Part shown: one piece after another, positions 13,200 through 64,000 of the stretch | How positions within the stretch are numbered: position 1 is the stretch's first letter | Layout: each line of letters starts with the position of its first letter | IMG/VR virus record: IMGVR_UViG_3300036859_000726 | Coordinates: 3,239-67,238 of that record | Reading direction: 5' to 3' (one strand) | Source of the DNA: a virus | DNA length: 64,000 nucleotides | Made by a program: the position numbers and the translations under genes | Notes under the pieces: generated by a model | The model's database searches: none | Seen by the model: the letters and a program-made list of their open reading frames with translations, nothing else | Told to the model about the DNA's origin: nothing

Positions 13200-14147
13200 A
13201 TGACAAAGCAACTGATTGTTGGCGGCGCTTCCCTGATCGAACTGGCTATCGCGAACAAGCCAGTGGGTGGCGCAATGCCCGGCTCAAAGCCGATGGAAGG
13301 CGAGTTGATGTCGCGTGAGTCGCGCTATGAAGGCGAACTCGTGGGTATGACCGATGACGAGATCAAGGCAAAGGCACCAGCTGTATTCGGCCGGCAGCAC
13401 TCGTCGCTCAGTGACGCGTACGCATTCGTGAGGACAGGAAACATTGTCAGACAAATGAGGGCGCTGGGCTATGCGGTTCAATCGGTCAAGCAGACCAATC
13501 CGCGCAAGCGTGATGCCTCAACGGTGCGGCATTCGGTCACGATGTGCCTCGCTCGCGACCTGAGCAAGCTGGGCAAGGAGCTGATCGGAAGGCCCACTGT
13601 CACGCTGATCAATAGCAACAACGGGCGCAGCAAGTTCCGCTGGATGCAGGGATACTTCAGGCTCGCTTGCTCCAACGGCCTGATCATCGGCGAGATCACA
13701 GCGTCGGCGGCCCTGATCCATCGGGCTGGCGAGATCGCCCAGCTGAACGAGGTGCTAAAGCAGATCACCGAACGACAGCAGAAGGCGAATGAGGTCATCG
13801 GCCGATGGGGCCAGATCATACTGCCCAAGGCAAGCCAACACCACCTCGCCCTCGAGATGGCCAAGCTCCGCTTCGGTGTGACAGCGGGCAAGTATGACCT
13901 TGATTCCGCGCTGATCGTGCGTCGGCCCGAGGATGAAGGTGATGACCTCTGGACGGTGTTCAACCGACTTCAGGAGTCGTATGTACGAGGTGGCGTCTCT
14001 TACATGGGCAATGGTGGGGACGTCAGGATGAGCCGCGCAATTGATGGCGTGGTAGCTGACACGTCCTTCAACCTCGCAGCCTGGGGTGTTGCCGAGAAGG
14101 TGGCCAAAACGGTCACTGGTGAAGGCAACGCTGTGTCGGTGAACTAA
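13200..14147 (+). CDS. DUF932 family protein
   Basis: LINSNNGRSKFRWMQGYFRLACSNGLI and RRPEDEGDDLWTVFNRLQE. Confidence 0.85.
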   Translation: MTKQLIVGGASLIELAIANKPVGGAMPGSKPMEGELMSRESRYEGELVGMTDDEIKAKAPAVFGRQHSSLSDAYAFVRTGNIVRQMRALGYAVQSVKQTNPRKRDASTVRHSVTMCLARDLSKLGKELIGRPTVTLINSNNGRSKFRWMQGYFRLACSNGLIIGEITASAALIHRAGEIAQLNEVLKQITERQQKANEVIGRWGQIILPKASQHHLALEMAKLRFGVTAGKYDLDSALIVRRPEDEGDDLWTVFNRLQESYVRGGVSYMGNGGDVRMSRAIDGVVADTSFNLAAWGVAEKVAKTVTGEGNAVSVN

Positions 14148-32899: not shown

Positions 32900-33514
32900 A
32901 TGTCCATAACACCAGTCAAGATCAGTGCGCTGCCAGAAGCAGCAGACCTCGACGGAACCGAGCTGGTTCCTGTTGTTCAGGCAGGGACGACCAAAAAGAC
33001 GACAGCCCAGGACATCGCTGATCTCGGCGGCGGAGGAGGCGGATCAGTTTTCGTCGCGAATCTAATTGGTCTTGGCTCGCAAACGATGGACGACAATCCA
33101 TACTACTATCTTGCTGCATCCGAAGTTCTTCTTGCAAGTGATGATGTTGAATATGTCGATGGTGTTGATGGTGTAAGCTCAGGATTCCTTCAATTCAACA
33201 ATGATGGAACGTATGAGATTCAGATTAGAGTGCAGCTGAGTGGCGACTGGCCGAACAAGGGCCAAAGTGGCGAGCCTGCATTCTATGGCCTTGTTGCTGG
33301 CGGCCAGGACGTCGCAAAGTTCTCGCGCTCTGTTTATCTTGGTGCTGCTAACGATGGCACAGTTGGATGGAGCTCTCAGCTTGTAAGGCAGATGGCTGCA
33401 ACCGACACGCTATTCATTGGACCAAAAGTTGCTTGCTACAACTTCACATCCAGGACCGTGATCATCACAGCGATGCAGGTGACAGTCAAGAAAATCGGTG
33501 ACTACACGCCGTGA
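32900..33514 (+). CDS. Short tail fibre/adhesin paralog 2
   Basis: N-terminal VKISALPEAADLDGTELVPVVQAGTTKKTT anchor. Confidence 0.65.
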   Translation: MSITPVKISALPEAADLDGTELVPVVQAGTTKKTTAQDIADLGGGGGGSVFVANLIGLGSQTMDDNPYYYLAASEVLLASDDVEYVDGVDGVSSGFLQFNNDGTYEIQIRVQLSGDWPNKGQSGEPAFYGLVAGGQDVAKFSRSVYLGAANDGTVGWSSQLVRQMAATDTLFIGPKVACYNFTSRTVIITAMQVTVKKIGDYTP

Positions 33515-34146
33515 TCAAGATCGTCACACATACCCGCGGCACCGGACTCTGGATTGACCAATGCGTCAAGTCTGTTGAAGCTGCGCGTGTGCCGAACATG
33601 TCTCATGACATTTTGATGCTCACTGATCCTAGTTCTCACGCATATGCAAGGTGGGCAGCTTTGCAGAGTGCAGATTTTGTTGGCTTTGTTGACGATGATG
33701 ATGTTATCATTCCTGGTGCTATTGAGAGATGCATGTCTGCTCTTCAAGCCACAGGTGCTGGCGTTGCATTCACAGGCCAGCTCGGGGTTGACGCAAATGG
33801 TGCTGTTGTGTCTGAGTATCACAGAGCAAGATTCCTGAAAGATGCTGCTTTGAATCCTCAAGCCATTCACCATTTCTCTCTCATTCGAAGGGATGCCCTC
33901 TGTGCACAGGCGATCGCAGCAGCAGTCAGAATTGGCGTCGGAGTCGACTGGCTCTGCAAAGCAAATGCTGCAATGCGGATGGGCGCTGTCCACGTTCCGA
34001 TGATTGGCTATCATTGGAGAATTCATCAAAATCAGGAGTCTGTAAGAACTGCAAAGCTGTTTGAAGATGCTTCAGATGAACTCACAGATGTGATATTCAG
34101 CTGGATGAAGAAGGACGCTCCGATTCCGGTGTACCGAGCATGCTGA
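33511..34146 (+). CDS. GT-A fold (GT2-like) glycosyltransferase
   Basis: ADFVGFVDDDDVIIPGAIERC (DxD context). Confidence 0.75.
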   Translation: MIKIVTHTRGTGLWIDQCVKSVEAARVPNMSHDILMLTDPSSHAYARWAALQSADFVGFVDDDDVIIPGAIERCMSALQATGAGVAFTGQLGVDANGAVVSEYHRARFLKDAALNPQAIHHFSLIRRDALCAQAIAAAVRIGVGVDWLCKANAAMRMGAVHVPMIGYHWRIHQNQESVRTAKLFEDASDELTDVIFSWMKKDAPIPVYRAC

Positions 34147-50241: not shown

Positions 50242-50567
50242 TAGTTTGGCTTCCCTGATGTTTGTTGCGAACGAAGTGATCTTTGATGAACACACTTTGG
50301 GCATTCACAGCCGGTGTCTACCCAGGCCTCTATCAGCCCATGCTGAACATTCACAAGCTCAAGCTGGAGCTCTGATTGTCCTTGCATGTACCCATTCAGT
50401 GTGAGAGCGATGAGGAGTGGAACGAGATCATCAATAGCCATGTCTTTATATCCAAAGACAACGCGATCAATTATCTCTGCATTCGTGATGCTCGTCATAG
50501 CGAGGTCAGATCCAGCCCTGAAGACTGTGTCGCTCGGTATGTATTTTGGTTTGTATTCTTCAGTCAT
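50241..50567 (-). CDS. Hypothetical protein
   Basis: ATGA coupling to the ligase gene. Confidence 0.6.
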   Translation of the reverse strand: MTEEYKPKYIPSDTVFRAGSDLAMTSITNAEIIDRVVFGYKDMAIDDLVPLLIALTLNGYMQGQSELQLELVNVQHGLIEAWVDTGCECPKCVHQRSLRSQQTSGKPN

Positions 50568-51565
50568 AGAGCCCTCTTATCTTCTCGCAGTCTCAAGAAC
50601 ACATACGCTCCTTGCTCAGACTTCTCTCCAGAGAGAGTCTCCCTGACATGCTCATGCCTCTTAAGCTCGATACCGCAGCCGCGAATCGTCTCTCGACGAG
50701 CCCACATATCTGCAGCCTTCTCCATATCGAATCCTGTACCGACAACGACCTCCTTTCCGTTTGGAAGGATCACGTTGATTGACCCAACCAATCCTGTCGG
50801 CTTCAGATTGGCTTTGAATGAGTGTCGCCTCAATTTGCCGTCATGCGTGTCCTTCGCTTCATTCGCATTGTGAAGGCGTTCGCTAACAGACAGGATGACT
50901 CCGTCTATGGTCTCTTCGCCTTTGATTCGCATGAAGAACGGGCGAGTCGCTGTTGATCTCGTTGGAAAATAGGGCATCTTGGCCGGGCGAAGTATGACCC
51001 CTTCAACCGTCTCACCCTGCGCGGCGCGAGGTTTGCAAGTCATAGGGTCATAGACGATCACGCCCTTGATCACCTCAATGACGTCAATAGTTTCAATTAG
51101 GATGCAACAAGGAAGGTCTTGCGCCTTCAACCTGGCATATCTACTCGAGAAGCCGCCCTCCGTTGCATAATCGAACATATGAAGATTGGCGAAGCATGGA
51201 CCCTCTTTTCTGTTGACGTCACTAACAGTCTTTGCCCATGAGTCGCTAGCGAGGCGATTACCAACAATCAGCTCGCCGCAGATTCCATCAGGAACATACT
51301 TGAACTTGTCCTGCAGCTCTTTGCGGAATGGAGCCATAGTTCGAGTTCGAAGGACGCCGCCCTTCTTTATTGCGTACACGCCATCAAGCTTCGGGAGGAC
51401 ATAGACATGGTCGCTAAATGAAAGCATCCTCTCCTTGTTCTTGCCTATTGCGACTATCCTCATGTCAGAGTTGACAGAGACTGACAATGCTTTTGAAGGT
51501 GCTATTTCAATAATAGTCATCATCGCCTCGCTCGGGTTCTGGTTCAGAGCTGCAAGAAGCTTCAT
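50564..51565 (-). CDS. lig: ATP-dependent DNA ligase (true start probably further downstream)
   Basis: Motif I VLPKLDG; EGVILR; VGTGF. Confidence 0.85.
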   Translation of the reverse strand: MKLLAALNQNPSEAMMTIIEIAPSKALSVSVNSDMRIVAIGKNKERMLSFSDHVYVLPKLDGVYAIKKGGVLRTRTMAPFRKELQDKFKYVPDGICGELIVGNRLASDSWAKTVSDVNRKEGPCFANLHMFDYATEGGFSSRYARLKAQDLPCCILIETIDVIEVIKGVIVYDPMTCKPRAAQGETVEGVILRPAKMPYFPTRSTATRPFFMRIKGEETIDGVILSVSERLHNANEAKDTHDGKLRRHSFKANLKPTGLVGSINVILPNGKEVVVGTGFDMEKAADMWARRETIRGCGIELKRHEHVRETLSGEKSEQGAYVFLRLREDKRAL

Positions 51566-53357: not shown

Positions 53358-53812
53358 TCTTTGAACCCGAATGCCTTCATGAACAGGTATTGCCAGTCAG
53401 GAACGCCATAAAGGCGCTTCAAGACCACGTGAGTATACGCCTGCAGCCTAGTCCGGGGCGCGTTAGCCGAGGGAGTTAGCTGCAAATTAGGAGGGATGTC
53501 GCGGCCAGGAATGAGATACAACTGCATCTGGTTATCACGCGCAATAGCGAAGGAAATGCCGCCATGATGCGAATAAGAGCGATGCCATTTGACCTGATCT
53601 ACCTCAAACGTGTCTGTTTTCACGATAGGCGTGGACGGCATCTTGGGAACTTGGAGGACTTTCAGCTCGAACCAAATCGTCTTTCCTTCAAGCAATGCAT
53701 GAACGTCAGGTATGCCAGCCGCAAGCCCGTTCTCAACGCGCTCTAAGCGTAGGCGGTCCGGCGCGTGGCGCTTCATCGCCTCGTAAACCAGCTGTTCTGC
53801 CTTCTTAGCCAA
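53354..53812 (-). CDS. PD-(D/E)xK nuclease (VRR-NUC/Holliday junction resolvase-like)
   Basis: GIPDV...WFELK. Confidence 0.8.
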   Translation of the reverse strand: MAKKAEQLVYEAMKRHAPDRLRLERVENGLAAGIPDVHALLEGKTIWFELKVLQVPKMPSTPIVKTDTFEVDQVKWHRSYSHHGGISFAIARDNQMQLYLIPGRDIPPNLQLTPSANAPRTRLQAYTHVVLKRLYGVPDWQYLFMKAFGFKE

Positions 53813-56594
53813 ATACGATCTCCGGGCGCGTCAGACAGCGCATCTTGTCGATTGATATCATGGAGAAGCCTTTGAGCCAGCGACCCCTGATCAGCACCCA
53901 GTCCTTGTTATCCAGTAAAGTGTCTGCTGCAAACTTGCCCATCTTCTCCCAATCTCGAGGTTTGATTCGAGCGAGGACTGGCTGGGATACGGAGTCGTCG
54001 ACGATGAACATATCCAGGAAGAGTGACTGAGCGTCCTTGTAAAGTTTGTTACCTCGACGCTGGAAGCGGACCGCCTCGTTCTCGTCTCGTCGCTCGCGCC
54101 GCACGATCTTGGCGATGATACACGCATCTTCTCTGTCCTCCAACTGACCGATCAGCTTGACCTTTCCTCGTATGCCGTGCATAGCAGGATTGTCATATAA
54201 GTCACCCCACAGAGTTCGGCCCTCGGTAAGATCCTTAAACTTGACTGTGGAAGCAAGCAGCTTCGCTTTTGCCTCCTTGGTTAGCGTGCCAGCCTTGCGC
54301 TTCGCCAGGTACTGCCCTGCCTTCGCCGGTCCGATGCCGACGATGTTCATGTACCCACCATATAGCACACCGTCCTGCACACTCCAATTCGCCTCGCTCT
54401 TATCCGGATCAAATGGGATGTAGTCAATGCCTTCGTCGCGCAACTCGCGTAGCATCTCCACGACCTGTTCATCGCCTTTGTTCGATCGGAGCAGAGCTGC
54501 AGCGAACTTCATTGGATAGTGAGCCTTCACATAGGCCGTCCAGAATGTCACGATTCCGTATGAAACACTGTGCGACGCATTGAACGCCCAGGATCCCATA
54601 TGAACCATCACACGCCACATTTCTACAGCGTCCTCTGCGGACACCCCGTGCTTGGCTGAACCGACGACGAACTTGTCGCGCATCTGGTTGAAGAACTCAA
54701 CTCCGCGGCGACCAGACATTGACTTGCGAATCAATGAGACCTCTGCCCAGGTGAAGTCACCGATCTCGCGACAGACGCGCATGATGCTCTCTTGGAACAC
54801 CATAACACCCTGTGTGGCGGCGAGGATGTCCTTCAGCAGCGGATGGCAAGTGACTGGTTCAGAGCCATTCTTGCGCTTGATGTACGAATTGGTGCCGCCG
54901 CCCGCCAGTGGTCCAGGCCTCGCTAACGCGCCGAGATGGTTGATCTCCAAGAAGGAGGTCACATGAACCTGGGTCGCCACTCGGCGGGCAGCCGCACCTT
55001 CGAGCTGAAACAGACCGCTGAACTTCTTGTCATTGATGACATCAAAAGCAGCCTGGTCGTGCAGCTTCAAGTCATAGAACTCTTGGTTCGTCAGCGCTTC
55101 GGCGTCTTCCAGCACACCCAGCGTGCGGAGTCCAAGCGCGTCGATCTTCAACAGTCCCAGATACTCGGCATCCTTCTTGTCGACGCAAGCGACGCCTTCG
55201 TCGGTCACGGTGCAGAAGTCATGTATTGGCTGGTTGTTCACAATGACACCAGCGGCGTGCACTGATGTTGTGAACGGGGTCTGCTCTGCCTTTCCTGCGA
55301 GCGCCATTTCAGGATAGTCCGCCGCGAACTTCTTGCCCTCGGCAGTCTGAATCATCGTGTCTTCAAGCGAGTGTCCGTAGCGCGAGTCGCCGGAGCTGTA
55401 CTCGATGAGTTGATTGATCAGGTTGAATGTTGTACCCTTTGGCACACCCATTCGTTTGCCGCATTCAAGCAGCACCGATTTGGGTTGCATCGATACAACG
55501 TTACCGACTCTAGCGACCTGTGCCTCTCCATACTTCTTCTTGAGGTAGTCGAACACGAGCTCTCGCTTAACATCCGAGAGATCGACGTCGATATCTGGCC
55601 AGTCGCTACGATTGACGTCGATAAACCTTTCGAAGAGGAGGTCGTGCTCAAGAGGATCCACTTCTGTGATTTGAAGCAGATAACAAACGAGAGATCCGGC
55701 GGAGGACCCGCGTCCTGGGCCAACGAGCATATGTTGCTTCGCAAATCGAACCATGTCTCCGACAACGAGGAAGTAGGATTGATATCCTTTCTCGTAGATG
55801 AGCTCACGCTCTCTCTTGAGGCGTTGTTCATGCTTCTCGTCCCAGACAATATGGCCCTTACCGACTCGATAACGGATCCCTTCTGCGATCTCGGCGTCAA
55901 GATCTCCTTCAGTTTGGACCAGGGCAGCTTTCGCAAGTTTGACTCCTTGGAGGCGTTCAGCAGCCTCGTATGTACCCTTGATCGCCTTCTCAAGGATGTC
56001 GTCTGGGATATGGTTCATCACACCACGCAGCTCGTCGAGAGTCAGGATGTGAAGCGGGGTCGTGCGTTTCTGATCGACGAGCGCGAGATACACATCCCAG
56101 TCCGTTGCTCGCGCATAGGCGTTGTCACTGGTCAGCACTAGCGGCTTGCCTGTCCTCGTGTGAAGCTCAAGCTGACGCTTCGCAGCGATCAGTGAGCGAG
56201 GATTAAGGTCGATGTAGTCAAAACACATCGGATCGTCAAGGAGGGCGCCAGAGAATCGTATGGCACAATTGCCCAGCTCCCAGGTGTCCTTCAACTTGAT
56301 CTCTGCATAGTGCTTGCTGGTCCAGTTGTAGAATTTTCGAATGTCCGTAGCCAGAGCCCATGCACCAGCGGCATTTCCGTCTGCCATCTTGACGGAGAAT
56401 TCTAGGCCAAAGGCGGGTGCGACCTTTGTCTCTTTGAGAGCTTTCTCAAAGCGAACATGGCCCCAAGTGCCGGTGTCAACGATCCCTGCGATCGGCGTCT
56501 CCAGATCCTGAAGCCGCGAGGCGACGTCGTTGATCGGCGCGAATGCTCGCTTGATCGAGAAGCTGGTACGGACTCTGAGCTGCGGGAATGTCAT
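53805..56594 (-). CDS. dnaE: DNA polymerase III alpha subunit (family C)
   Basis: GPGRGSSAGSLV; LLFERF; PDIDVD; LLKIDALGLRTL; FNASHSVSY. Confidence 0.95.
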   Translation of the reverse strand: MTFPQLRVRTSFSIKRAFAPINDVASRLQDLETPIAGIVDTGTWGHVRFEKALKETKVAPAFGLEFSVKMADGNAAGAWALATDIRKFYNWTSKHYAEIKLKDTWELGNCAIRFSGALLDDPMCFDYIDLNPRSLIAAKRQLELHTRTGKPLVLTSDNAYARATDWDVYLALVDQKRTTPLHILTLDELRGVMNHIPDDILEKAIKGTYEAAERLQGVKLAKAALVQTEGDLDAEIAEGIRYRVGKGHIVWDEKHEQRLKRERELIYEKGYQSYFLVVGDMVRFAKQHMLVGPGRGSSAGSLVCYLLQITEVDPLEHDLLFERFIDVNRSDWPDIDVDLSDVKRELVFDYLKKKYGEAQVARVGNVVSMQPKSVLLECGKRMGVPKGTTFNLINQLIEYSSGDSRYGHSLEDTMIQTAEGKKFAADYPEMALAGKAEQTPFTTSVHAAGVIVNNQPIHDFCTVTDEGVACVDKKDAEYLGLLKIDALGLRTLGVLEDAEALTNQEFYDLKLHDQAAFDVINDKKFSGLFQLEGAAARRVATQVHVTSFLEINHLGALARPGPLAGGGTNSYIKRKNGSEPVTCHPLLKDILAATQGVMVFQESIMRVCREIGDFTWAEVSLIRKSMSGRRGVEFFNQMRDKFVVGSAKHGVSAEDAVEMWRVMVHMGSWAFNASHSVSYGIVTFWTAYVKAHYPMKFAAALLRSNKGDEQVVEMLRELRDEGIDYIPFDPDKSEANWSVQDGVLYGGYMNIVGIGPAKAGQYLAKRKAGTLTKEAKAKLLASTVKFKDLTEGRTLWGDLYDNPAMHGIRGKVKLIGQLEDREDACIIAKIVRRERRDENEAVRFQRRGNKLYKDAQSLFLDMFIVDDSVSQPVLARIKPRDWEKMGKFAADTLLDNKDWVLIRGRWLKGFSMISIDKMRCLTRPEIVFG

Positions 56595-57010
56595 CGTGGC
56601 ATATTCCTGAGTGCTTCCATCATAGAGAACTGAAACTGGCTCATAGTACTGCTCATCATATTGTCGAACGCACCAGTCACTGCGCGAACAATGCCTTGGT
56701 CAAGACGATCTTTCAAAATCTTGAATACATCATCCTTGTGCACATCAAGCCAGTTCTTGACCATCTCTTTGACTTGCTCTTCAAGAAGCTCCTTCATGAG
56801 AGAGACGATCGGAATCGGACCTTCCTCCTTGCGCTCGTTGTAACTGCCTGGGTTGGTGATCTTGACGGAAGGCTTGAAGAATGCAGCCTGCACTGCGACA
56901 TCAACGATTTTCTTGAGCTCCTCGTCAGTCATGAGATCGCCCATCGACTCTCTGATCCGAGCGAACATCCTGCTCTGGAAGTCCGTCGCAGCCTGCACTT
57001 CGGTGCCCAT
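56591..57010 (-). CDS. Hypothetical protein
   Basis: Coupled ORF. Confidence 0.6.
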   Translation of the reverse strand: MGTEVQAATDFQSRMFARIRESMGDLMTDEELKKIVDVAVQAAFFKPSVKITNPGSYNERKEEGPIPIVSLMKELLEEQVKEMVKNWLDVHKDDVFKILKDRLDQGIVRAVTGAFDNMMSSTMSQFQFSMMEALRNMPR

Positions 57011-57441
57011 CAGAATGACTTCCCGCCAGGAGCGAGGCGAGCCTCCGGCTTATGGTCAGCACGACCGATGTTGTAGATCAGCTTCTCGCGCATTGCTCCG
57101 GAGAGATCATATCCGGCGGCGCCAGCATAGTCAAAGATGCGAATCAGGGCGTCGGCGAGTTCAACCTCTGCCATCTTGCGGTGCGGCAGGTGGGTGTCCA
57201 TCACACCCTTGCGCTCCCCCTCCATCGACTCGGCGACCTCGCTAACGATGAGCATTAAAAGCTCACCCTTGTTGCGATCCAGCGGCTCGCCTTCCTTGAG
57301 GCCGTGCCACCATTGGTAGTTGTTCAGATGGATGAACTTTGCCATCTCATTCAGACCATTGATTGCAGCCTCATTATCTGAGACGCGATTGATCTGGGAC
57401 GCTGCGCTGTGATCGCCGAAGTCTGATACGACTGTTCTCAT
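57010..57441 (-). CDS. MazG-like NTP pyrophosphohydrolase
   Basis: LMLIVSEVAESMEGERK...VELADALIRIFD. Confidence 0.8.
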   Translation of the reverse strand: MRTVVSDFGDHSAASQINRVSDNEAAINGLNEMAKFIHLNNYQWWHGLKEGEPLDRNKGELLMLIVSEVAESMEGERKGVMDTHLPHRKMAEVELADALIRIFDYAGAAGYDLSGAMREKLIYNIGRADHKPEARLAPGGKSF

Positions 57442-58094
57442 GATATGCTTGTCCTTACCTTGTTGTCGTCGGAGATAGGGTCGAAGCCGCGGATGACGAC
57501 TTCTTCCTCGAATCCTGTTGGAAATCTGAATTCTGCAGGCCGAGTCGTTGGCGGCACCAGACTTATCAGGTTGTGGTGTATAACGATCTCGGCTAGAGCT
57601 CTGACGTCATCAAGAGCTCTGTGGGTCTGTTTATATGGCTTGCCCATCGTGTGCTCATACAGCTCGATCAGCCGCATGCGGCGACCCCATATCGGTTCGA
57701 ATTCCTGGACGGTGCACATATTGTGGCGCGGCCAAGGGAAGTCCTTGATGGCTCCGGCGATGCGCAGCTCGTTGCTCAGCAGGGCGTGATCGAACGGTTG
57801 ATTGTGGGCTATCAAACAGTCTGCCTGAGAGAGGAATTCCTTGACTGCTGGAATATATGCCGCAAAAGATGGTGCGCTTTTCAGATCCTCGTTCTTCAAG
57901 CCTGTTATCCTGGTGATCTCAGGAGTGATCTGCTGATCCGGATGGCATAAGAACACAAGAGAGTCAAGCTCCTTGCCTGTGTGGTCAATAAGAACTGCAG
58001 CGAACTCAATGATTCGCGGTTGCAGCTTCGGCTTCGCATGTGGATGTAGCGTCAACCCAGTCGTTTCCGTATCAAACACAGCGCCGATGGTCAT
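57438..58094 (-). CDS. DEDDh 3'-5' exonuclease (DnaQ/epsilon-like)
   Basis: VFDTETTG; IAHNQPFD; HRALDD. Confidence 0.9.
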   Translation of the reverse strand: MTIGAVFDTETTGLTLHPHAKPKLQPRIIEFAAVLIDHTGKELDSLVFLCHPDQQITPEITRITGLKNEDLKSAPSFAAYIPAVKEFLSQADCLIAHNQPFDHALLSNELRIAGAIKDFPWPRHNMCTVQEFEPIWGRRMRLIELYEHTMGKPYKQTHRALDDVRALAEIVIHHNLISLVPPTTRPAEFRFPTGFEEEVVIRGFDPISDDNKVRTSIS

Positions 58095-58276
58095 GATCTA
58101 TCTTCCTCAATGGGTGGCTCCGCAGCCGTCTTGTCGAGTCGTTTGTCGTACACAGGGTTGTAGTGAGGGCCGGGCGCGCGACAAGTGCAACGTTCGCCAC
58201 ATGACACGAAGCAGAACTTCGTGCGAGTCCAGTAGCCTTCTTCGTTGTAATAGCCATCGCGCCTTCCGAACGTCAT
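58091..58276 (-). CDS. Small Cys-rich protein
   Basis: CFVSCGERCTC; coupled. Confidence 0.5.
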   Translation of the reverse strand: MTFGRRDGYYNEEGYWTRTKFCFVSCGERCTCRAPGPHYNPVYDKRLDKTAAEPPIEEDRS

Positions 58277-58443
58277 TCTGTGAATACCTCTGGCTTAATC
58301 CGCAGAACCCAATGTCCATCAGAGCGTTGTATCCACTCTCCTGCATTGATGCTGAAGCCATTGTGATCTTCAACCTCTATGAGGCCAGGACGATCATGGT
58401 CTGGAGGACCATCAAATACGACATCTATGAACGTCCTTGCCAT
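58273..58443 (-). CDS. Small conserved phage protein
   Basis: Read manually: MARTFIDVVFDGPPDHDRPGLIEVED...GEWIQRSDGHWVLRI. Confidence 0.6.
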   Translation of the reverse strand: MARTFIDVVFDGPPDHDRPGLIEVEDHNGFSINAGEWIQRSDGHWVLRIKPEVFTE

Positions 58444-58444
58444 G

Positions 58445-59119
58445 CTACACTCCGTATGGGATGTCGCATCCCGTCAGATACTTATGATGCGCTTTCGTGG
58501 TCAACAGATACGCTATCAGCCCTGCAACCTGGTCGGGCGGCGTTTCCTCGCCTATAAGGGATGCAGCGAGCTGACGATTTGCAACTGTCGTGGCGTCCCA
58601 GCCGCGGAGATCTGATGCCTGCCGATCAACGGTATCAGACATTCTCGTGTCCTTCAGCCTGTTCGGGCTGATTGAGAACACGGTCACATCCGGAGCCCAC
58701 TCTCGAGCCATCACGCGTGTAAGCATCAAGGCCGCTGACTTGCTGGAGCAATATGCAGCACTTGTCCTCATCGGCATATCAGCAGCTGAACTCACGATGT
58801 TCAGGATCGTGCCCTTGCTTGAGCGGAGGTCGTGAAGAAGATGCTGAGACATCTTCAGAATGCCCTTCACATTCACATCCATAACCTGGTCCCACTCCTT
58901 GGATGACACATTCTCGAGCCAGTTCAGCCTAACGATCCCTGCGCAGTTGATGAGCACATCAATTCCGCCATCTCTGAACTCACGATTGACGCTCGGATTG
59001 CGAACGTCCCCTCCGTGGGCTATGTCGAACGAAAGGACGGAATGCCCCGACCCGACAAGATGCTGGGCTATGCAAGCTCCAAGGCCGCTCGACGATCCTG
59101 TGACCACGATGCGACTCAC
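58445..59119 (-). CDS. SDR family NAD(P)-dependent oxidoreductase
   Basis: VTGSSSGLG; LINCAG; catalytic YCSSK. Confidence 0.9.
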   Translation of the reverse strand: MSRIVVTGSSSGLGACIAQHLVGSGHSVLSFDIAHGGDVRNPSVNREFRDGGIDVLINCAGIVRLNWLENVSSKEWDQVMDVNVKGILKMSQHLLHDLRSSKGTILNIVSSAADMPMRTSAAYCSSKSAALMLTRVMAREWAPDVTVFSISPNRLKDTRMSDTVDRQASDLRGWDATTVANRQLAASLIGEETPPDQVAGLIAYLLTTKAHHKYLTGCDIPYGV

Positions 59120-59826
59120 AGAGCCTCTCCTGATCGTTTGATGGATTCATAGAGCGCATCACGCTCCGCAGGCCAGGAGTGAGCGCCAAACGGGCGGCCA
59201 CCCCGGATCCATTCCGCATGGGTAGTGTCAACCATTTTCTGGTTGAACACGCAGATGTCCATTGGAATGATGGACTCCTTGATGCAGGCGTCTTGAAGGT
59301 TGATCAAGATTTCGAACGCCTCTCCAGGCGTGCGACCCCCGACCATCGCTCCGTGGCCCTCCATCAACACAGCATATCGCATGTGCCCGAAGGCTTCGAC
59401 CAGGCCATCATAGCGATTGAGTCCCTTGTATGGCATGAAACCAAGGAACTGCTCTGTGAAGAGCGCAGCGCCTTGATGAACCTGCCTGAGAATCCCAATC
59501 GCTGCGGCGGCGATGGTGTCCGGCGTATGCACATGAAGGATACAGTTGAACTCAGGCCGAGACTTGTAGATGTCGCGATGGATCCAGAATTGCGCGTTCG
59601 GCTTGATGCCGGCGCTGGTGGCGTCCACCCCATCCTCGTCTACCACAACGGAGTCAAGACTCGTCGTTGCCCAGAACGGACGCGGCCTTGCGATGTTGAT
59701 AAGCAGATGCTTGTTCTTCACGAGCATCGGCGACCGCATTGAACAGTGCAGGAACACTGAGTCGTCAAGACCCCGTGCCGCCATCGCTCGCATCATGAGC
59801 GCGAATTCAAGGTCTAACGCCATCAT
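59116..59826 (-). CDS. Class II aldolase/adducin family protein
   Basis: IHRDIYKSRPEFNCILHVHT...MEGHG (Zn-binding His triad). Confidence 0.85.
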   Translation of the reverse strand: MMALDLEFALMMRAMAARGLDDSVFLHCSMRSPMLVKNKHLLINIARPRPFWATTSLDSVVVDEDGVDATSAGIKPNAQFWIHRDIYKSRPEFNCILHVHTPDTIAAAAIGILRQVHQGAALFTEQFLGFMPYKGLNRYDGLVEAFGHMRYAVLMEGHGAMVGGRTPGEAFEILINLQDACIKESIIPMDICVFNQKMVDTTHAEWIRGGRPFGAHSWPAERDALYESIKRSGEAL

Positions 59827-60151
59827 CTTCCTTCTCCTTTGTTGCTTCTCGTAGCATGGCAGCGTAAACCATCAAGTCTTCTGCAGAGTCGACATGCCCT
59901 TCAACGATGTTTTGCGCATATCGCTTCATCTTGATAAGGCACATGACCATCAAATACAGATGCTGGGCAGCCTCTGGCGTTGTGATCTCCGGTATCTTGC
60001 CGCCGAACAGAGCGAGCAGAGCAGGACCTGTTGTCCGATAGGATGCGCCATATGCAGCATTCCTTTTGGAGAAAAGGCCTGCAGCCTCGTCCAGAAAGTC
60101 TGGAGCAGTGCGCTTCTTGATTAAGCTCGGGACATCATTTTCCGGTGGCAT
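59807..60151 (-). CDS. Nucleotide-modification-associated (Nmad1/DUF1599 or DUF6378-like) helical protein
   Basis: KRNAAYG...IKMKRY...DSAEDLMVYAAML; start MPPEND. Confidence 0.6.
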   Translation of the reverse strand: MPPENDVPSLIKKRTAPDFLDEAAGLFSKRNAAYGASYRTTGPALLALFGGKIPEITTPEAAQHLYLMVMCLIKMKRYAQNIVEGHVDSAEDLMVYAAMLREATKEKEDDGVRP

Positions 60152-60620
60152 GGTACAGGAACTCCTCGTCGTGGATTGCGCGATGGACGCCCGGAAGCCC
60201 GAGGTCGTTGTACATCTGAACGATTTCCCTTCTGTCGTCGTAGCAGGCATGCACATCCTCTGGATTGAACAGTCGTGTCAGAAGGTCGATCATCACAGCG
60301 CGCTTGAATTCTACAGCAGGCCGATAGTCGTTGAATGTTGGGCGCAAGTGCAAGAGATTCTCGCCGGGCTTTCTGCCATGCTTCATGAACCACTTCAGAC
60401 GAATTGCGCGATACTCGTCAGGCATGCCAGAGATGAAGTGGATCTGGAATGATCTCGGATATTGCATTTCCTTGATGAAGTCCGCCTTGTCCTGAATGCA
60501 GGCCTTGTGATACATGTGATACCTTGCCCAGCGAATCCCGCTCGGATGGTCCTGTATCAGATGAAGGCGATGATAGTCATCAGAGATGCAGTTGTCGATG
60601 TCGCAAATGATGAACTTCAT
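60135..60620 (-). CDS. HAD-superfamily phosphatase (PNKP phosphatase-like)
   Basis: ICDIDNCIS (DxD); YDDRREIVQMY. Confidence 0.8.
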   Translation of the reverse strand: MKFIICDIDNCISDDYHRLHLIQDHPSGIRWARYHMYHKACIQDKADFIKEMQYPRSFQIHFISGMPDEYRAIRLKWFMKHGRKPGENLLHLRPTFNDYRPAVEFKRAVMIDLLTRLFNPEDVHACYDDRREIVQMYNDLGLPGVHRAIHDEEFLYHATGK

Positions 60621-60928
60621 TTGACCTCCACGCCAGCAGCGAAGAGCGCAGCGGTTGCCTTGCCTTGCGCAGCCATTCGCTCTTCAGGAGTCACTGCGGC
60701 GAGCAGAGCCTTCAGCGCTCTAGCCATCGCAGGAGCCGCGGCAAGTCCGAGGATCTGTTCCTGTGTCGCCGCAACGCCTGCTGTAGCGATGACCTTTTCG
60801 CCCTGGCGAATACATAGGACGAATCCTTCCTTGGTTAGTCGCTCAACAGAGTAAGCACCAGCCTCTCGAGCGCGATTACGACTCATCGTAATCACCCGCT
60901 CAATCGATGCAGGCAACTTGTCCGTCAT
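60617..60928 (-). CDS. Hypothetical protein
   Basis: Coupled ORF. Confidence 0.55.
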   Translation of the reverse strand: MTDKLPASIERVITMSRNRAREAGAYSVERLTKEGFVLCIRQGEKVIATAGVAATQEQILGLAAAPAMARALKALLAAVTPEERMAAQGKATAALFAAGVEVK

Positions 60929-61122
60929 ATAAGCACGGCGATATCGGATAGCAGCTTGTTGCCGTCCTCCGCTGGGTCCTTCGCCAGATGTGCCTTGATC
61001 GCATCCTTGATCTTCTTGTCGCGAGCCGCGACCTGGTGAATGGCAGTCGCTTGGGCCGCCAGTTTCTGTTGCAGTTGACCAACTTGGTGCTGCAGATTAG
61101 TGATCCTTCCCATCTTGAGCAT
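60925..61122 (-). CDS. Hypothetical coiled-coil protein
   Basis: Coupled ORF. Confidence 0.55.
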   Translation of the reverse strand: MLKMGRITNLQHQVGQLQQKLAAQATAIHQVAARDKKIKDAIKAHLAKDPAEDGNKLLSDIAVLI

Positions 61123-61125
61123 CTC

Positions 61126-61845
61126 CTATTTCACGCCACGCATCTTGTCAACGATCTTCAGCAGCTTGCCTCGCTGCATCAGATCAGGGAAAGCCTCCTT
61201 CGCGAAGGCTTCAATCTCGTCGAAATAGTCGCGACCTTTGTCGCCGAATATGAAGTCGCTCGCCCAGGGCCAAACGGCGAGCACCTGAACCACCATCTCG
61301 GTGATCGCTGCTTGGTACTCAGCCTGCGTACGACCACCACTACGCGACCTTGCGAGGTCGGCAAAGTTGCGGAGGTTGTATTTGGCCACGATGTTCGTGG
61401 ACACATTCGTAGGTAGGATCGAGCGTGCATCCTCGACCGCGTGACCTCGACGCACGAGGAGCTTGTAGAGTTCAGACGTCCTTTCATTGTGGAGATTGAC
61501 AGCCTCCAGCGCGGCGGGGTCACCTCGGAATCTCTCCGGCATGACAAAGTCAAAGTTGGACATGTCGTTTACGCGCATAGACTGCTGAGCGTAGGATGCG
61601 CTCCGCGTCCGCACAAACTGGTGCGTGAAGTTCCGACTCACGCCCTGGATCAGGAATGTGACGTCAGCGAACTCATGAGAAGAGCGAATGGTGTTCGCGA
61701 TGTACTTCAGCTCCTCGTGCTTTCGCTCCTTGGGCCAAGCACGAATCTCGTTCATGAGGTTCGGCGAAAGAGTCAGACGTGTGCTCTTCGTGAAGATGAG
61801 CATCTCTGCGGCCTCTGGTGTGTAACTCAGCAGTGTAACCTTCAT
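61126..61845 (-). CDS. thyX: Flavin-dependent thymidylate synthase-like protein (RTR variant)
   Basis: HEFADVTFLIQGVSRNFTHQFVRTRSASYAQQSMR; ARSILP. Confidence 0.85.
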   Translation of the reverse strand: MKVTLLSYTPEAAEMLIFTKSTRLTLSPNLMNEIRAWPKERKHEELKYIANTIRSSHEFADVTFLIQGVSRNFTHQFVRTRSASYAQQSMRVNDMSNFDFVMPERFRGDPAALEAVNLHNERTSELYKLLVRRGHAVEDARSILPTNVSTNIVAKYNLRNFADLARSRSGGRTQAEYQAAITEMVVQVLAVWPWASDFIFGDKGRDYFDEIEAFAKEAFPDLMQRGKLLKIVDKMRGVK

Positions 61846-61847
61846 TG

Positions 61848-62747
61848 TCAGTCCTTTATGAGTCGTCTTGAATAACTATCTGCGTCCATCATCATCTTGA
61901 TGCGCCCGATGTCGTGAATCAGGTCATCAAGCAGGATATTGCGCCAGGTGGCAAAGCGACCGAGAGAGTAGATTCCTTGCTCTGAGAGCAGCCTGATAAT
62001 GCCGCGGCGAGTCGGCTCATCGATCGCAGAGATCTTGCCATACTTCTGCTTGGTCTCAGTAAGCTCAGTGATTTTGGGCAAACCGAATGCCTCTTCAAGC
62101 AAGTCTGTGCAGTCATAACCCATGTTTATGCTTTCAGCGATCAGAAGGTCGCCTGTGATGCTGGCTCGATAAAGATTGGTCACATCATCAGGGAAGTATA
62201 TGGTCTGATACAGATCGCAGTCCGGGACGCGATATCTCTGCACCTTGATGCTAGAGAAGCCAAAACTGGGCTTGTCGCTTACTATGAGCTGTCCATGCTC
62301 AAAAAGAGCTGGCATCGGTATTGTGCTGATAACAGGCGAATCAGCCTCTTTGCCGAAAACGAACTTCTCTCCCCAGTGGATGCGGTCGCCAACAGCCTCG
62401 ATCAGCTGGAAGTAGAAGTCTTCTGGAGCTATGAATCGCTCAACAGGATCAAGATTCCAGATGCTTCGATCGTTGGCTAGGCGAGACAGAACTTTGCGGC
62501 TGTACATGTTCGCATGCTGGATTGTTGGCTTGCAGAAATCGCCATCTGCCCACACACCCTTGCGAACTGTGACCTTCTTAAATGGGATGCCTGTGAGAGC
62601 AGACACTTGCTCGCCGCGAAAGCGAAGGACCGCTTTGTGATTCTCGACCGGAGCTTGGTTAGCTTCGAACACTGATGCCTTTGGCCACGCGTGGGCGGCG
62701 AGAAGGCCACTCAGCCCCGCACCCACAATAATCGGACTTTTGCTCAT
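61848..62747 (-). CDS. FAD-dependent oxidoreductase, UDP-galactopyranose mutase-like
   Basis: IIVGAGLSGLLAA; C-terminal LGRFATWRNILLDD. Confidence 0.75.
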   Translation of the reverse strand: MSKSPIIVGAGLSGLLAAHAWPKASVFEANQAPVENHKAVLRFRGEQVSALTGIPFKKVTVRKGVWADGDFCKPTIQHANMYSRKVLSRLANDRSIWNLDPVERFIAPEDFYFQLIEAVGDRIHWGEKFVFGKEADSPVISTIPMPALFEHGQLIVSDKPSFGFSSIKVQRYRVPDCDLYQTIYFPDDVTNLYRASITGDLLIAESINMGYDCTDLLEEAFGLPKITELTETKQKYGKISAIDEPTRRGIIRLLSEQGIYSLGRFATWRNILLDDLIHDIGRIKMMMDADSYSRRLIKD

Positions 62748-62792: not shown

Positions 62793-64000
62793 CTAAAACT
62801 GCTCATCTTCAGCTGATTCCTTCGCCAGATGCTGTCGCCATAGTTCCTCACCGCGCAACGCCTCGTTTCTGAGTTTCGTTCTGTCTTTCTCAATGATCCA
62901 ATCGTCGCCACCGTTTAGGACAATCACGTCGTCCCATTCAATTGCTCCAGACACATTCTTGAATCGTATGCTGAGTCGCATATGCTGGGCATTGATCGCT
63001 GCAGCTGAATTCTTGAGTTTCCAGGCTGTGAACTTCTCTTCGTCAGAGCTTGCCTTGGAGTAGAGGCCGCCAGCCTCCATGTACATCTTGAAGGTTCTTG
63101 CTCGCATCACACGAGTCGGCCACTTCTCGTTGATCTCCCTTGCATGCTCAAGGTATGCAGGGGTTGCTTCAGCAGACATCGCTTTTGTCGCGTCAGATTC
63201 TGGAGCTCGACCAGCGCCGTCAAATCCAGTCAAATCGACCTGCTTGAGCACCTGATAGAATGACGCAACGACATCCTCCCTTTCGAGAAGAGAGTACAGC
63301 GCGTCGTAGTATGCTGCTCCATCATGATGGAAGTGCGAAGGATTCTTGATGACATACACGCGGCGATCAGTTGGCGTTAAAGGAAGTGCTGCCAGGTCGT
63401 TGGATGCACCGATTTTGACTGACACATTTGGTATGTTGAAATCTTTGACGTTCTTATCATTGATCTTGATGTCGTCATCCGTTATCAAGCTGTTGATCTT
63501 CGATCTAGTCCTCTTGCTGTCCCTCTCCGTGACTTCCTCGAAACACAGAAAGCGTGCAGAAGCCAACCAATTGTTGAACTGGGCTTCGAATACATCAGAC
63601 ATCGTTCCCTTGCAGACCACCTGCTTTGGAAACACCTTCTTGAGCAGTTTGAACACGAAGCCGCGACCAACACCATCCTGCGGCGTCACAAAAAGGACCA
63701 TCCAGTTGATTCGAATGCCTGGACGCTGAACAGCGAAAGCAAGGAACTGTGTGAGTACCTTGTAATGTCGAGCATCGTTGTTGCACAAGAACATCAAGTG
63801 GTCGAAAATGGGTTTTGCTAGTTCCTCACAATTCTCGAGATAAGGCTTCGACTCAAAAGGTGATGGTTTGCATCGATTGTAGTATCTCGCATTCCCCCTT
63901 CTGTAGTATGGGTATGGATCAGCAGGAGAGAATGTAACTCGGTCAACTGTCTGCCTGTCTCGATCGGCAAGCCATATTTTCGGCAGTGCGGTTGGACGAT
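62793..64000 (-). CDS. Primase-helicase (SF3/DUF5906-type), C-terminal part; N-terminus lies beyond the window
   Basis: Frame stays open to position 64000 (checked by hand); PQDGVGRG Walker A; LCFEE Walker B; IGASND motif C. Confidence 0.8.
   Translation of the reverse strand, partial: RPTALPKIWLADRDRQTVDRVTFSPADPYPYYRRGNARYYNRCKPSPFESKPYLENCEELAKPIFDHLMFLCNNDARHYKVLTQFLAFAVQRPGIRINWMVLFVTPQDGVGRGFVFKLLKKVFPKQVVCKGTMSDVFEAQFNNWLASARFLCFEEVTERDSKRTRSKINSLITDDDIKINDKNVKDFNIPNVSVKIGASNDLAALPLTPTDRRVYVIKNPSHFHHDGAAYYDALYSLLEREDVVASFYQVLKQVDLTGFDGAGRAPESDATKAMSAEATPAYLEHAREINEKWPTRVMRARTFKMYMEAGGLYSKASSDEEKFTAWKLKNSAAAINAQHMRLSIRFKNVSGAIEWDDVIVLNGGDDWIIEKDRTKLRNEALRGEELWRQHLAKESAEDEQF

Follow-up and report, generated by a model that had tools for sequence, protein, structure and literature searches.

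Within a 64,000-nucleotide stretch of viral DNA (hereafter the window), we studied a compact run of minus-strand genes that might include a cassette for hypermodification of thymidine. The window comprises positions 3239-67238 of a 67,549-bp IMG/VR record that CheckV rates as complete. The run extends from 63998 to 51804, and neighboring genes in it overlap by 1-20 nt or sit 1-3 nt apart. It begins with a DUF5906 primase-helicase, which is followed by a flavoprotein resembling UDP-galactopyranose mutase (UGM), a ThyX-like enzyme, two small open reading frames (ORFs), a HAD phosphatase, a DUF6378-like protein, an aldolase-like protein, a short-chain dehydrogenase/reductase (SDR), two more small ORFs, an exonuclease, a MazG-like protein and an orphan ORF (Table 1). 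After the 139-aa orphan, the run continues with DnaE, a small helicase-associated protein and an SNF2 helicase.

A preliminary description of this DNA had placed a minus-strand run between the primase-helicase and DnaE, and both the coordinates and the Pfam matches of the two ends bear this out. All eight gene assignments made there were reproduced by family matches and directly read motifs, except that the label "Nmad" is treated separately below. We regard the observation as confirmed because the motifs of the SDR, exonuclease, HAD phosphatase and flavoprotein could all be read directly. Four small ORFs (65, 103, 56 and 61 aa) and the orphan are additional to the genes listed in that description.

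Pbunavirus, Wifcevirus and Luteibacter phage Pluto are distant relatives of the window phage, with roughly 40-50% identity at the protein level. According to a search of sequencing runs, the sole public run that contains it is a soil metagenome, stored as contigs.

Table 1 Genes of the minus-strand run in the window
Feature	Position	Strand	Matches and remarks
UGM-like FAD/NAD(P)-binding flavoprotein, 299 aa	61848..62747	-	phrog_4828 1.1e-89; universal first cassette gene
ThyX-like flavin-dependent thymidylate synthase homologue	61126..61845	-	Pfam Thy1 6.4e-33; RTR replaces RHR
HAD phosphatase, polynucleotide-kinase-phosphatase type	60135..60620	-	HAD_PNKP 8.3e-5 (below cut-off); phrog_415 2.4e-17
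DUF6378-like small helical protein	59807..60151	-	DUF6378 17-18 bits, cut-off 27.1; phrog_4889 C-terminal part
Class II aldolase/adducin-superfamily metalloenzyme	59116..59826	-	Aldolase_II PF00596 1.3e-26, 94 bits; rare phage-only branch
Classical SDR oxidoreductase	58445..59119	-	adh_short 1e-34; intact N-S-Y-K tetrad
DEDDh 3'-5' exonuclease, proofreading subunit type	57438..58094	-	RNase_T 2.1e-25; phrog_192 3e-39; bounds slot downstream
MazG-like all-alpha NTP pyrophosphohydrolase	57010..57441	-	phrog_5658 8.4e-55
65-aa ORF	60925..61122	-	conserved in subclade; homologues in L022, L024
103-aa ORF	60617..60928	-	conserved in subclade and L029
56-aa ORF	58273..58443	-	no family match
61-aa ORF	58091..58276	-	no family match
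139-aa orphan ORF between MazG and DnaE	56591..57010	-	no Pfam or PHROG match
DUF5906 primase-helicase, C-terminal part	62793..63998	-	Pfam DUF5906 5.5e-14; runs off window; upstream module boundary
DnaE-type family C DNA polymerase	53805..56594	-	DNA_pol3_alpha 1.5e-63; finger domain 7.7e-33

A fixed gene order with one variable slot

We fetched more than 110 related loci (designated by L and a number) and scored them with hidden Markov models built from the first set. Wherever the contig reaches, the genes follow the order flavoprotein, ThyX, HAD, DUF6378, a slot, exonuclease, DnaE, a small protein and SNF2, an arrangement retained even at 35-40% identity. Only the slot, which separates DUF6378 from the exonuclease, varies within the cassette.

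In PB1-like phages and many contigs, the slot is empty or nearly so. In 39 loci, about half of the set, it contains an SDR accompanied by c11, a VOC-like protein of 155-190 aa. A 270-aa protein of unknown kind (c27) occupies the slot in five loci, a radical SAM/SPASM enzyme in one, and a class I SAM methyltransferase in at least four, one of which also has MazG. These radical SAM, methyltransferase and c27 genes include L006:4971-6218, L058:9619-10116, L080:10254-10751, L096:9402-9974, L106:6797-7327 and L015:14177-14989. The aldolase-like protein occurs in six loci, with an SDR in five of them and with MazG but no SDR in the sixth (L027). One locus (L009) has an SDR without a partner.

The c11 protein almost always follows the SDR in relatives (e.g., L005:13441-13998 and 25 others), and is absent from the clade of the window. 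It is a distant member of the VOC/glyoxalase fold: 14 of 26 members match Glyoxalase_4, with a best E-value of 3.5e-6, and a comparison of the c11 profile with the PDB gave nothing significant. The changing combinations in the slot resemble the combinatorial pattern of tailoring genes described for known thymidine-hypermodification clusters (PMC8989533).

A UGM-like flavoprotein that accompanies a divergent ThyX

The GxGxxG of an FAD site can be read directly in the flavoprotein. An AlphaFold2 prediction from the single sequence reached a pLDDT of only 32, and we therefore used a rerun with a 55-sequence alignment for the fold (pLDDT 91.2, pTM 0.87). When this model was submitted to Foldseek, the first 35 PDB matches were all UGMs. 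The predicted fold and the FAD-binding site thus both place the flavoprotein with the UGMs.

The sequence evidence is less clear. UGM was the best match of the family profile among PDB sequences, but it was sub-significant (E 0.16). In this alignment, the segments LYFPEDNCPFYRATI and GRFGSWR of the A. fumigatus UGM are paired with YFPd....YRAsI and GRFatWR of the phage family. The A. fumigatus segments carry Y317/R327 and R447, whose roles are presumed, in part from the titles of mutant structures in the PDB. Within the aligned motifs, Y184, R194, R264 and W268 are invariant across the phage flavoprotein family, although the alignments to UGM are themselves sub-significant. No Pfam family matched the flavoprotein at E<=0.01, and hence there was no match to the Pfam GLF family.

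The flavoprotein shares with UGM the GxGxxG FAD site and, in the sub-significant alignment, the YFP..YRA and GRF..WR motifs. It differs in its length, which is 299 aa as compared to 365-510 aa for UGMs, and so the extra helical domain of UGM must be largely missing. It also differs in belonging to a phage-only family that is always found beside ThyX. On the strength of the structural model, the flavoprotein at least looks like a UGM and perhaps works like one, but it lies outside the GLF family by sequence criteria.

The distribution of the family is almost exclusively viral. A collection of 5.8 billion proteins contains 2813 homologues, nearly all of them from viruses. Among 185,579 prokaryotic species genomes, there were six matches, every one on a phage-like contig of a metagenome-assembled genome. 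In GenBank phages, the flavoprotein occurs in 362 records, with Pbunavirus foremost, followed by Wifcevirus and by Serratia, Xanthomonas, Rhizobium, Pantoea and Luteibacter phages. In more than 110 loci, some with as little as about 35% identity, the gene adjoins ThyX.

The ThyX-like enzyme passes its family models, with 114.6 bits for Pfam Thy1 (cut-off 24.8) and, narrowly, 90 bits for TIGR02170 (cut-off 87.9). However, it does not have the canonical ThyX motif RHRxxxxxxxS; the window instead has R79-T80-R81...S89-x-R91. The His of RHR is replaced by T or S in every relative in which the motif could be parsed (RTR/RSR). In addition, the position of His53 in T. maritima is taken by an Ile that is invariant in the phage family. 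The arginines that hold dUMP and the serine of the ThyX motif are kept. Judging from the sequences, these departures are compatible with altered chemistry, and equally with a divergent but ordinary ThyX.

Thymidine hypermodification in related phages

The nucleosides of two Pbunaviruses, F8 and 14-1, were analyzed by LC-MS (liquid chromatography coupled to mass spectrometry), and new species of 362 Da (F8) and 390 Da (14-1) were found (bioRxiv 10.1101/2025.03.31.646159). These adducts replace about a quarter of thymidines, occur at TG and were read as derivatives of a sugar alcohol (362 Da) and an aldopentose (390 Da); the five restriction enzymes that fail to cut F8 DNA all have TG in their sites (bioRxiv 10.1101/2025.03.31.646159). 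The authors of this END-nuclease preprint stress that F8 and 14-1 do not have the genes by which hypermodification is usually recognized (bioRxiv 10.1101/2025.03.31.646159). Our literature search found no later paper that assigns genes to the Pbunavirus modification, and searches on DUF6378 and on ThyX in hypermodification found nothing beyond the 2025 preprint.

By mass arithmetic, 362 Da corresponds to deoxyuridine plus C5H11O4, and 390 Da to deoxyuridine plus C6H11O5. These masses are compatible with two arrangements: a sugar attached through oxygen to the methylene, or one attached through carbon, with its C1 serving as the "methyl" carbon.

A trace of this modification may also be present in the genome sequences. 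We compared 6-bp palindromes in F8 (36000-66015, L109) and 14-1 (36000-66235, L110). In F8, palindromes without TG/CA are more under-represented than those with it (mean z -0.98 versus -0.20, p 0.011), and the same split occurs in 14-1 (p 0.019). This footprint is consistent with the reported TG-specific modification of thymidine. Moreover, the ratio TG/T in F8 is 0.267, which agrees with "about a quarter of thymidines".

The window shares with F8 and 14-1 the order flavoprotein, ThyX, HAD-DUF6378, exonuclease, DnaE, small helicase and SNF2, at 40-50% identity, and both it and Pbunavirus are without ThyA and TET/JBP and apparently without other known hypermodification genes. The shared cassette emerged from tblastn and HMM comparisons with Nello, F8, 14-1 and more than 100 contigs. 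In Pbunavirus, the slot is empty, HAD and DUF6378 are fused, and MazG is located several genes further on. By contrast, in the window the aldolase-like and SDR genes fill the slot, MazG comes immediately after the exonuclease, and HAD and DUF6378 are separate genes.

We propose that the region is a gene cassette for thymidine hypermodification of the Pbunavirus type, with a rare tailoring variant that consists of the aldolase-like protein and the SDR. We put the probability of this reading at roughly 0.45. That the cassette is responsible for the modification, and that the window phage is itself modified, is what we infer from the comparison with relatives. The preliminary description had proposed that a sugar-derived moiety is attached to a pyrimidine. 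This part of it gains support from the LC-MS of F8 and 14-1, which share the core cassette, but not from the window phage's own DNA.

Several points weigh against the cassette proposal. The adduct LC-MS covers F8 and 14-1, whereas the window phage, a contig from a soil metagenome, is known from sequence alone and is only about 40-50% identical to these Pbunaviruses. The palindrome split seen in Pbunavirus is absent from the window (p 0.75); this is a weak test, and the host or the motif may differ, or the phage may be unmodified. Moreover, F8 and 14-1 differ in their adducts, yet their flavoproteins are 97% and their ThyX proteins 94% identical, and therefore the gene that determines the adduct may lie elsewhere. 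The F8 and 14-1 "PNK" proteins (L109:9772-10836 and L110:9940-10956) are 80% identical; they differ mostly in an acidic expansion of EDAA repeats in the HAD-DUF6378 linker, which is longer in F8. The small ORFs o58, o60 and o61 and the N-terminus of o66 also diverge, and the comparison assigned no adduct determinant. In addition, each core gene might have an ordinary function, namely dTMP synthesis, end repair or pool sanitation. Finally, the link between cassette and modification is a co-occurrence in one lineage, and is therefore inseparable from shared ancestry.

In the main rival explanation, the region is an ordinary module for nucleotide metabolism and accessory replication functions, and any modification of the lineage's DNA would come from other genes. 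ThyX would make dTMP with the flavoprotein as a redox partner, HAD-DUF6378 would heal ends or act as a nucleotidase, MazG would sanitize the pool, and the SDR and aldolase-like proteins would be products of auxiliary metabolic genes (FabG-like morons) that take no part in DNA chemistry. The matches of ThyX to Pfam and, narrowly, TIGR02170 agree with such a module, as do the retained dUMP-binding arginines and the Ser/Arg of its motif. The PHROG annotations are likewise generic (thymidylate synthase, polynucleotide kinase, pyrophosphatase, FabG-like), and the best matches of the SDR are FabG, glucose dehydrogenase and similar enzymes. Two further points count in its favor: F8 and 14-1 have a nearly identical flavoprotein and ThyX despite their different adducts, and the window shows no TG-type palindrome signature. 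However, a role as redox partner leaves the UGM-like fold and the putative motifs of the UGM substrate site unexplained, and the flavoprotein family is restricted to these phages and always next to ThyX. A varying set of tailoring-type genes (radical SAM, methyltransferase, VOC, SDR and aldolase) at one fixed position would not be expected of housekeeping. Also, the lineage is experimentally known to be modified, and no other candidate genes are known. We consider the ordinary module somewhat unlikely.

Pseudomonas therapy relies on Pbunaviruses more than on most other phages. The hypermodification of their DNA was discovered only recently. The conserved cassette and its variable slot provide named candidates for the genes behind it, which can be tested in the culturable phages F8, 14-1, Wifcevirus Bas98-101, Pluto and MyoSmar; of these, F8 and 14-1 represent the empty slot, and the others the slot with an SDR and a VOC-like protein. 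Wifcevirus was reported to resist the restriction-modification systems tested, with the exception of EcoP1_I (PMC11990801). It carries the cassette with an SDR and a VOC-like protein in the slot, and if the cassette proposal is true, this resistance would be explained. The site of EcoP1_I (AGACC/GGTCT) has no TG, and would fit a TG-directed modification. If confirmed, the proposal would also bring a flavin-based glycosylation chemistry into DNA modification. It would lead one to expect a multitude of different adducts in thousands of uncultured phages, among them those with the aldolase-like/SDR variant.

Modification of DNA or of nucleotides

The HAD phosphatase has the motifs DIDNC and DD. 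It corresponds to a split form of the Pbunavirus "PNK" gene, which in PB1-like phages is fused to a DUF6378-like domain, and the DUF6378-like protein of the window is the counterpart of the C-terminal domain of that gene. The start of the DUF6378-like gene is probably the ATG at 60151, which overlaps the HAD stop by 17 nt, as in the relative L022. Matches to DUF6378 are weak (15-21 bits, cut-off 27.1), and recur in eight of eight relatives tested. Conserved motifs in this protein are RNxxYG, KxxRxA and GHxDSxxDxxVY. The preliminary description had called it Nmad/DUF6378-like, but we could not verify the "Nmad" label: Nmad2-5 and DUF1599 (PF18753, PF18754, PF18756, PF18757, PF07659) gave no match at E<=1, and the DUF6378 match is below threshold.

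That description had further supposed that the moiety is attached to a pyrimidine nucleotide, which DnaE then incorporates. On such a route, the modified pyrimidine would be built wholly at the level of the nucleotide (dNMP to dNTP), with MazG and HAD shaping the pool. The location of the cassette between helicase and polymerase, the presence of pool enzymes (ThyX on dUMP, MazG on dNTPs) and the phage's possession of its own DnaE and proofreading exonuclease speak for this route. However, the modification in F8 is confined to TG and to about a quarter of T, which better fits a sequence-specific action on DNA, and the TG/T ratio of F8 matches complete modification of TG sites. Polymerase incorporation of a ready-made dNTP fits such a restriction poorly. 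In addition, the HAD domain belongs to the PNKP class, which acts on DNA ends, and no kinase for a modified dNMP was found in a non-exhaustive scan. Incorporation of a pre-made nucleotide by the family C polymerase is unsupported, and the TG context in F8 suggests a DNA-acting step. We regard synthesis at the nucleotide level as quite improbable.

Comparison with known systems and proposed chemistry

In the canonical pathway of thymidine hypermodification, a dUMP hydroxymethylase leads to 5-hmdU in DNA, on which the kinase 5-HMUDK, aGPT-Pplase/AADT and tailoring enzymes act (PMC8989533). The system in the relatives of the window is similar in that its target is also the C5-methyl of thymidine, and in that variable tailoring enzymes (radical SAM, flavoenzymes) are clustered near genes for replication and nucleotides. 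However, the canonical adducts are amino acids or polyamines, whereas those of the relatives are sugars, and the enzymes conserved here comprise two flavoproteins and a HAD phosphatase. Moreover, the window has no ThyA-family hydroxymethylase and no TET/JBP: ThyA (PF00303) and Tet_JBP (PF12851) had no match at E<=0.1 when the whole 67.5-kb genome was searched. When the module genes and 10 larger early ORFs were scanned against Pfam and PHROG, no 5-HMUDK-type kinase or aGPT-Pplase was detected; the small ORFs and the structural region were only partly covered. The absence of ThyA and Tet_JBP thus comes from model searches, while PurZ, Que/Dpd and aGPT were not each searched for by model.

Base J of kinetoplastids is glucosyl-hydroxymethyluracil, and thus also a sugar that is placed site-specifically on the C5-methyl carbon of thymine in DNA. 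Its synthesis requires a JBP (TET/JBP) dioxygenase and a glucosyltransferase. By contrast, the window has no Tet_JBP, and its sole GT2-like glycosyltransferase ORF lies among the tail-fibre genes. This ORF (33511-34146; Glycos_transf_2, 3e-6) may target virion proteins or DNA, and tblastn against 50,697 phage genomes found no homologue of it.

Two known flavoenzyme reactions bear on how a sugar might be attached. In UGM, N5 of the reduced flavin attacks C1 of the sugar as a nucleophile. ThyX passes a methylene via flavin N5 to C5 of uracil, through an exocyclic methylene that is open to trapping by nucleophiles. A parallel between MnmEG and methylene chemistry of the ThyX type has been drawn (PMC8989533).

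The mechanism that we envisage for the cassette is one whose every chemical step we infer. One of the two flavoenzymes would form a flavin-N5 iminium intermediate, either ThyX with the methylene of folate or the UGM-like enzyme with an activated sugar at its C1. Attachment of this carbon unit to a deoxyuridine or thymidine residue at C5 would then yield a thymine with a polyol or a cyclic sugar on its "methyl" carbon. The PNKP-type HAD phosphatase could strip a phosphate left on the adduct or its precursor, and MazG could adjust the dNTP pool. The slot would supply interchangeable tailoring enzymes that diversify the adduct. In the clade of the window, the aldolase-like metalloenzyme and the NAD-type SDR might remodel the sugar by oxidation or reduction, epimerization, cleavage or decarboxylation, and so produce a variant adduct.

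A bolder form of the cassette proposal is that the flavoprotein and ThyX constitute a new flavin-dependent route for attaching sugars to C5 of (deoxy)uridine or thymidine, one that dispenses with a ThyA hydroxymethylase, TET/JBP, kinase and aGPT-Pplase and leaves it to the slot enzymes to diversify the sugar. The link would be made either by UGM chemistry at C1 of the sugar, or by a sugar hydroxyl that traps the exocyclic methylene of ThyX. We consider this route unlikely. If it is true, a very large supergroup of phages would have a family of distinct glyco-thymidines.

The aldolase-like/SDR variant

The aldolase-like protein belongs to a rare branch. In the 5.8 billion proteins, it has three close homologues (57-62% identity), all of which occur on metagenomic phage contigs with the same synteny. 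An exhaustive profile search of 1.84 billion representatives added two phage proteins (1e-38 and 1e-31), after which E-values fall to 1e-18. Neither a megablast of the region nor a tblastn search with the aldolase turned up a match among 50,697 phage genomes, and single-protein scans of viral contigs with the aldolase and the SDR were likewise empty.

The preliminary description had named this protein a Zn class II aldolase/epimerase, and thus a sugar-phosphate enzyme. Its membership of the superfamily stands, as do the metal ligands: three His residues (H98, H100 and H158) are invariant in the four-member alignment. In the same alignment, an invariant Gln (Q79) occupies the site of the catalytic Glu in FucA's PSSEW motif. 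This too is a point against the cassette proposal. The nearest curated model is the uncharacterized PRK07044, with 75 bits against a cut-off of 207, and all NCBIfam equivalogs are far below their cut-offs. Among structures, 3ocr, adducin and the decarboxylase NovR come closest. A role as a sugar-phosphate enzyme is not established because Gln replaces the catalytic Glu and the nearest relatives are uncharacterized or decarboxylases. The sequence would thus seem to indicate a metalloenzyme of the superfamily, and a label of sugar-phosphate aldolase or epimerase goes beyond the evidence.

The SDR has an intact N-S-Y-K tetrad, and the claim of an intact YxxxK was upheld by the full set of classical motifs: TGSSSGLG (T7-G14), NCAG (N58-G61), N83, S110/111 and Y123-x3-K127. 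An Asp in its sequence suggests a preference for NAD. About 45 related loci carry an orthologue in the corresponding place, with 41-51% identity. SDRs had been described as unusual in phage replication modules, but they are common in this phage group, in about half of the related loci. A survey of the gene neighborhood had also been suggested, with a sporadic insertion of the SDR/aldolase pair as a refuting outcome; the SDR is no such insertion, for among more than 85 related loci about half have it in one constant position.

In a tree of the flavoprotein and ThyX, the clade of the window nests inside lineages that carry the SDR and the VOC-like protein, and we therefore regard the SDR as inherited. 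This clade lost the VOC-like partner and gained the aldolase-like metalloenzyme directly upstream of the SDR. Since the SDR is that of a phage lineage in which the VOC-like protein is the usual partner, the pairing with the aldolase arose inside the phage clade. The two genes overlap by 4 nt, and the pair is kept in five divergent genomes. In the subclade, they evolve like their neighbors (57-68% identity, dN 0.18-0.36, dS >1), and the aldolase-like gene is fixed there and under purifying selection.

The window resembles bifunctional aldolase/SDR proteins (rhamnulose-1-phosphate aldolase/lactaldehyde dehydrogenase, NCBIfam NF006192) in that Aldolase_II directly precedes the SDR, but here they are two genes. 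We rejected an origin by splitting of such a RhaEW-type protein; the aldolase has no match to NF006192, and the SDR is a vertically inherited phage SDR.

The slot pairs might have no part in DNA modification at all. The aldolase-like/SDR and SDR/VOC pairs could act on a small molecule of the host or on a defense signal. They would then serve counter-defense or metabolic takeover, and only happen to share an early or middle operon with the replication genes. Phage SDRs that belong to phrog_3142 are categorized as morons or auxiliary metabolic genes, and besides PRK07044 the aldolase branch is nearest to the aromatic-acid decarboxylases NovR and PhtC. The aldolase without an SDR in L027 and the SDR without a partner in L009 would also fit such independent roles. 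However, the position between DUF6378 and the exonuclease is strictly kept in about 50 loci, the genes are translationally coupled to both neighbors, and no defense or anti-defense family was matched. We find a function in host metabolism or defense highly improbable, and prefer tailoring within the proposed modification cassette.

Exonuclease, MazG-like protein and flanking genes

We now note properties of the other genes beyond those in Table 1. The exonuclease has the DEDDh residues D8/E10, D102 and H158/D163 (DxE, D, HxxxxD). The MazG-like protein matches three other "pyrophosphatase" PHROGs and has no Pfam match; the acidic helices EVAESME and ELADAL can be read directly in it. Its best PDB match, to MazZ, is weak (E 0.28). 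An orthologue with 78% identity occurs in L024, and the equivalent genes of L027 and L106 pass Pfam MazG. The orphan ORF after MazG is missing from the nearest relatives, and in L024 MazG abuts DnaE directly.

Upstream of the run, a RepB_primase gene precedes the DUF5906 helicase in the relatives L024 and L025. Downstream, a likely ATP-dependent DNA ligase (50564-51565; phrog_114, 8e-21) follows the SNF2 helicase, as it does in Pbunavirus, where the ligase and a MazG-like gene come after the helicase block. A DUF932-family protein (2e-14) is encoded at 13200-14147, in the early region of the window. A DUF932 gene is also located between the flavoprotein and ThyX in the relatives L015 and L016.

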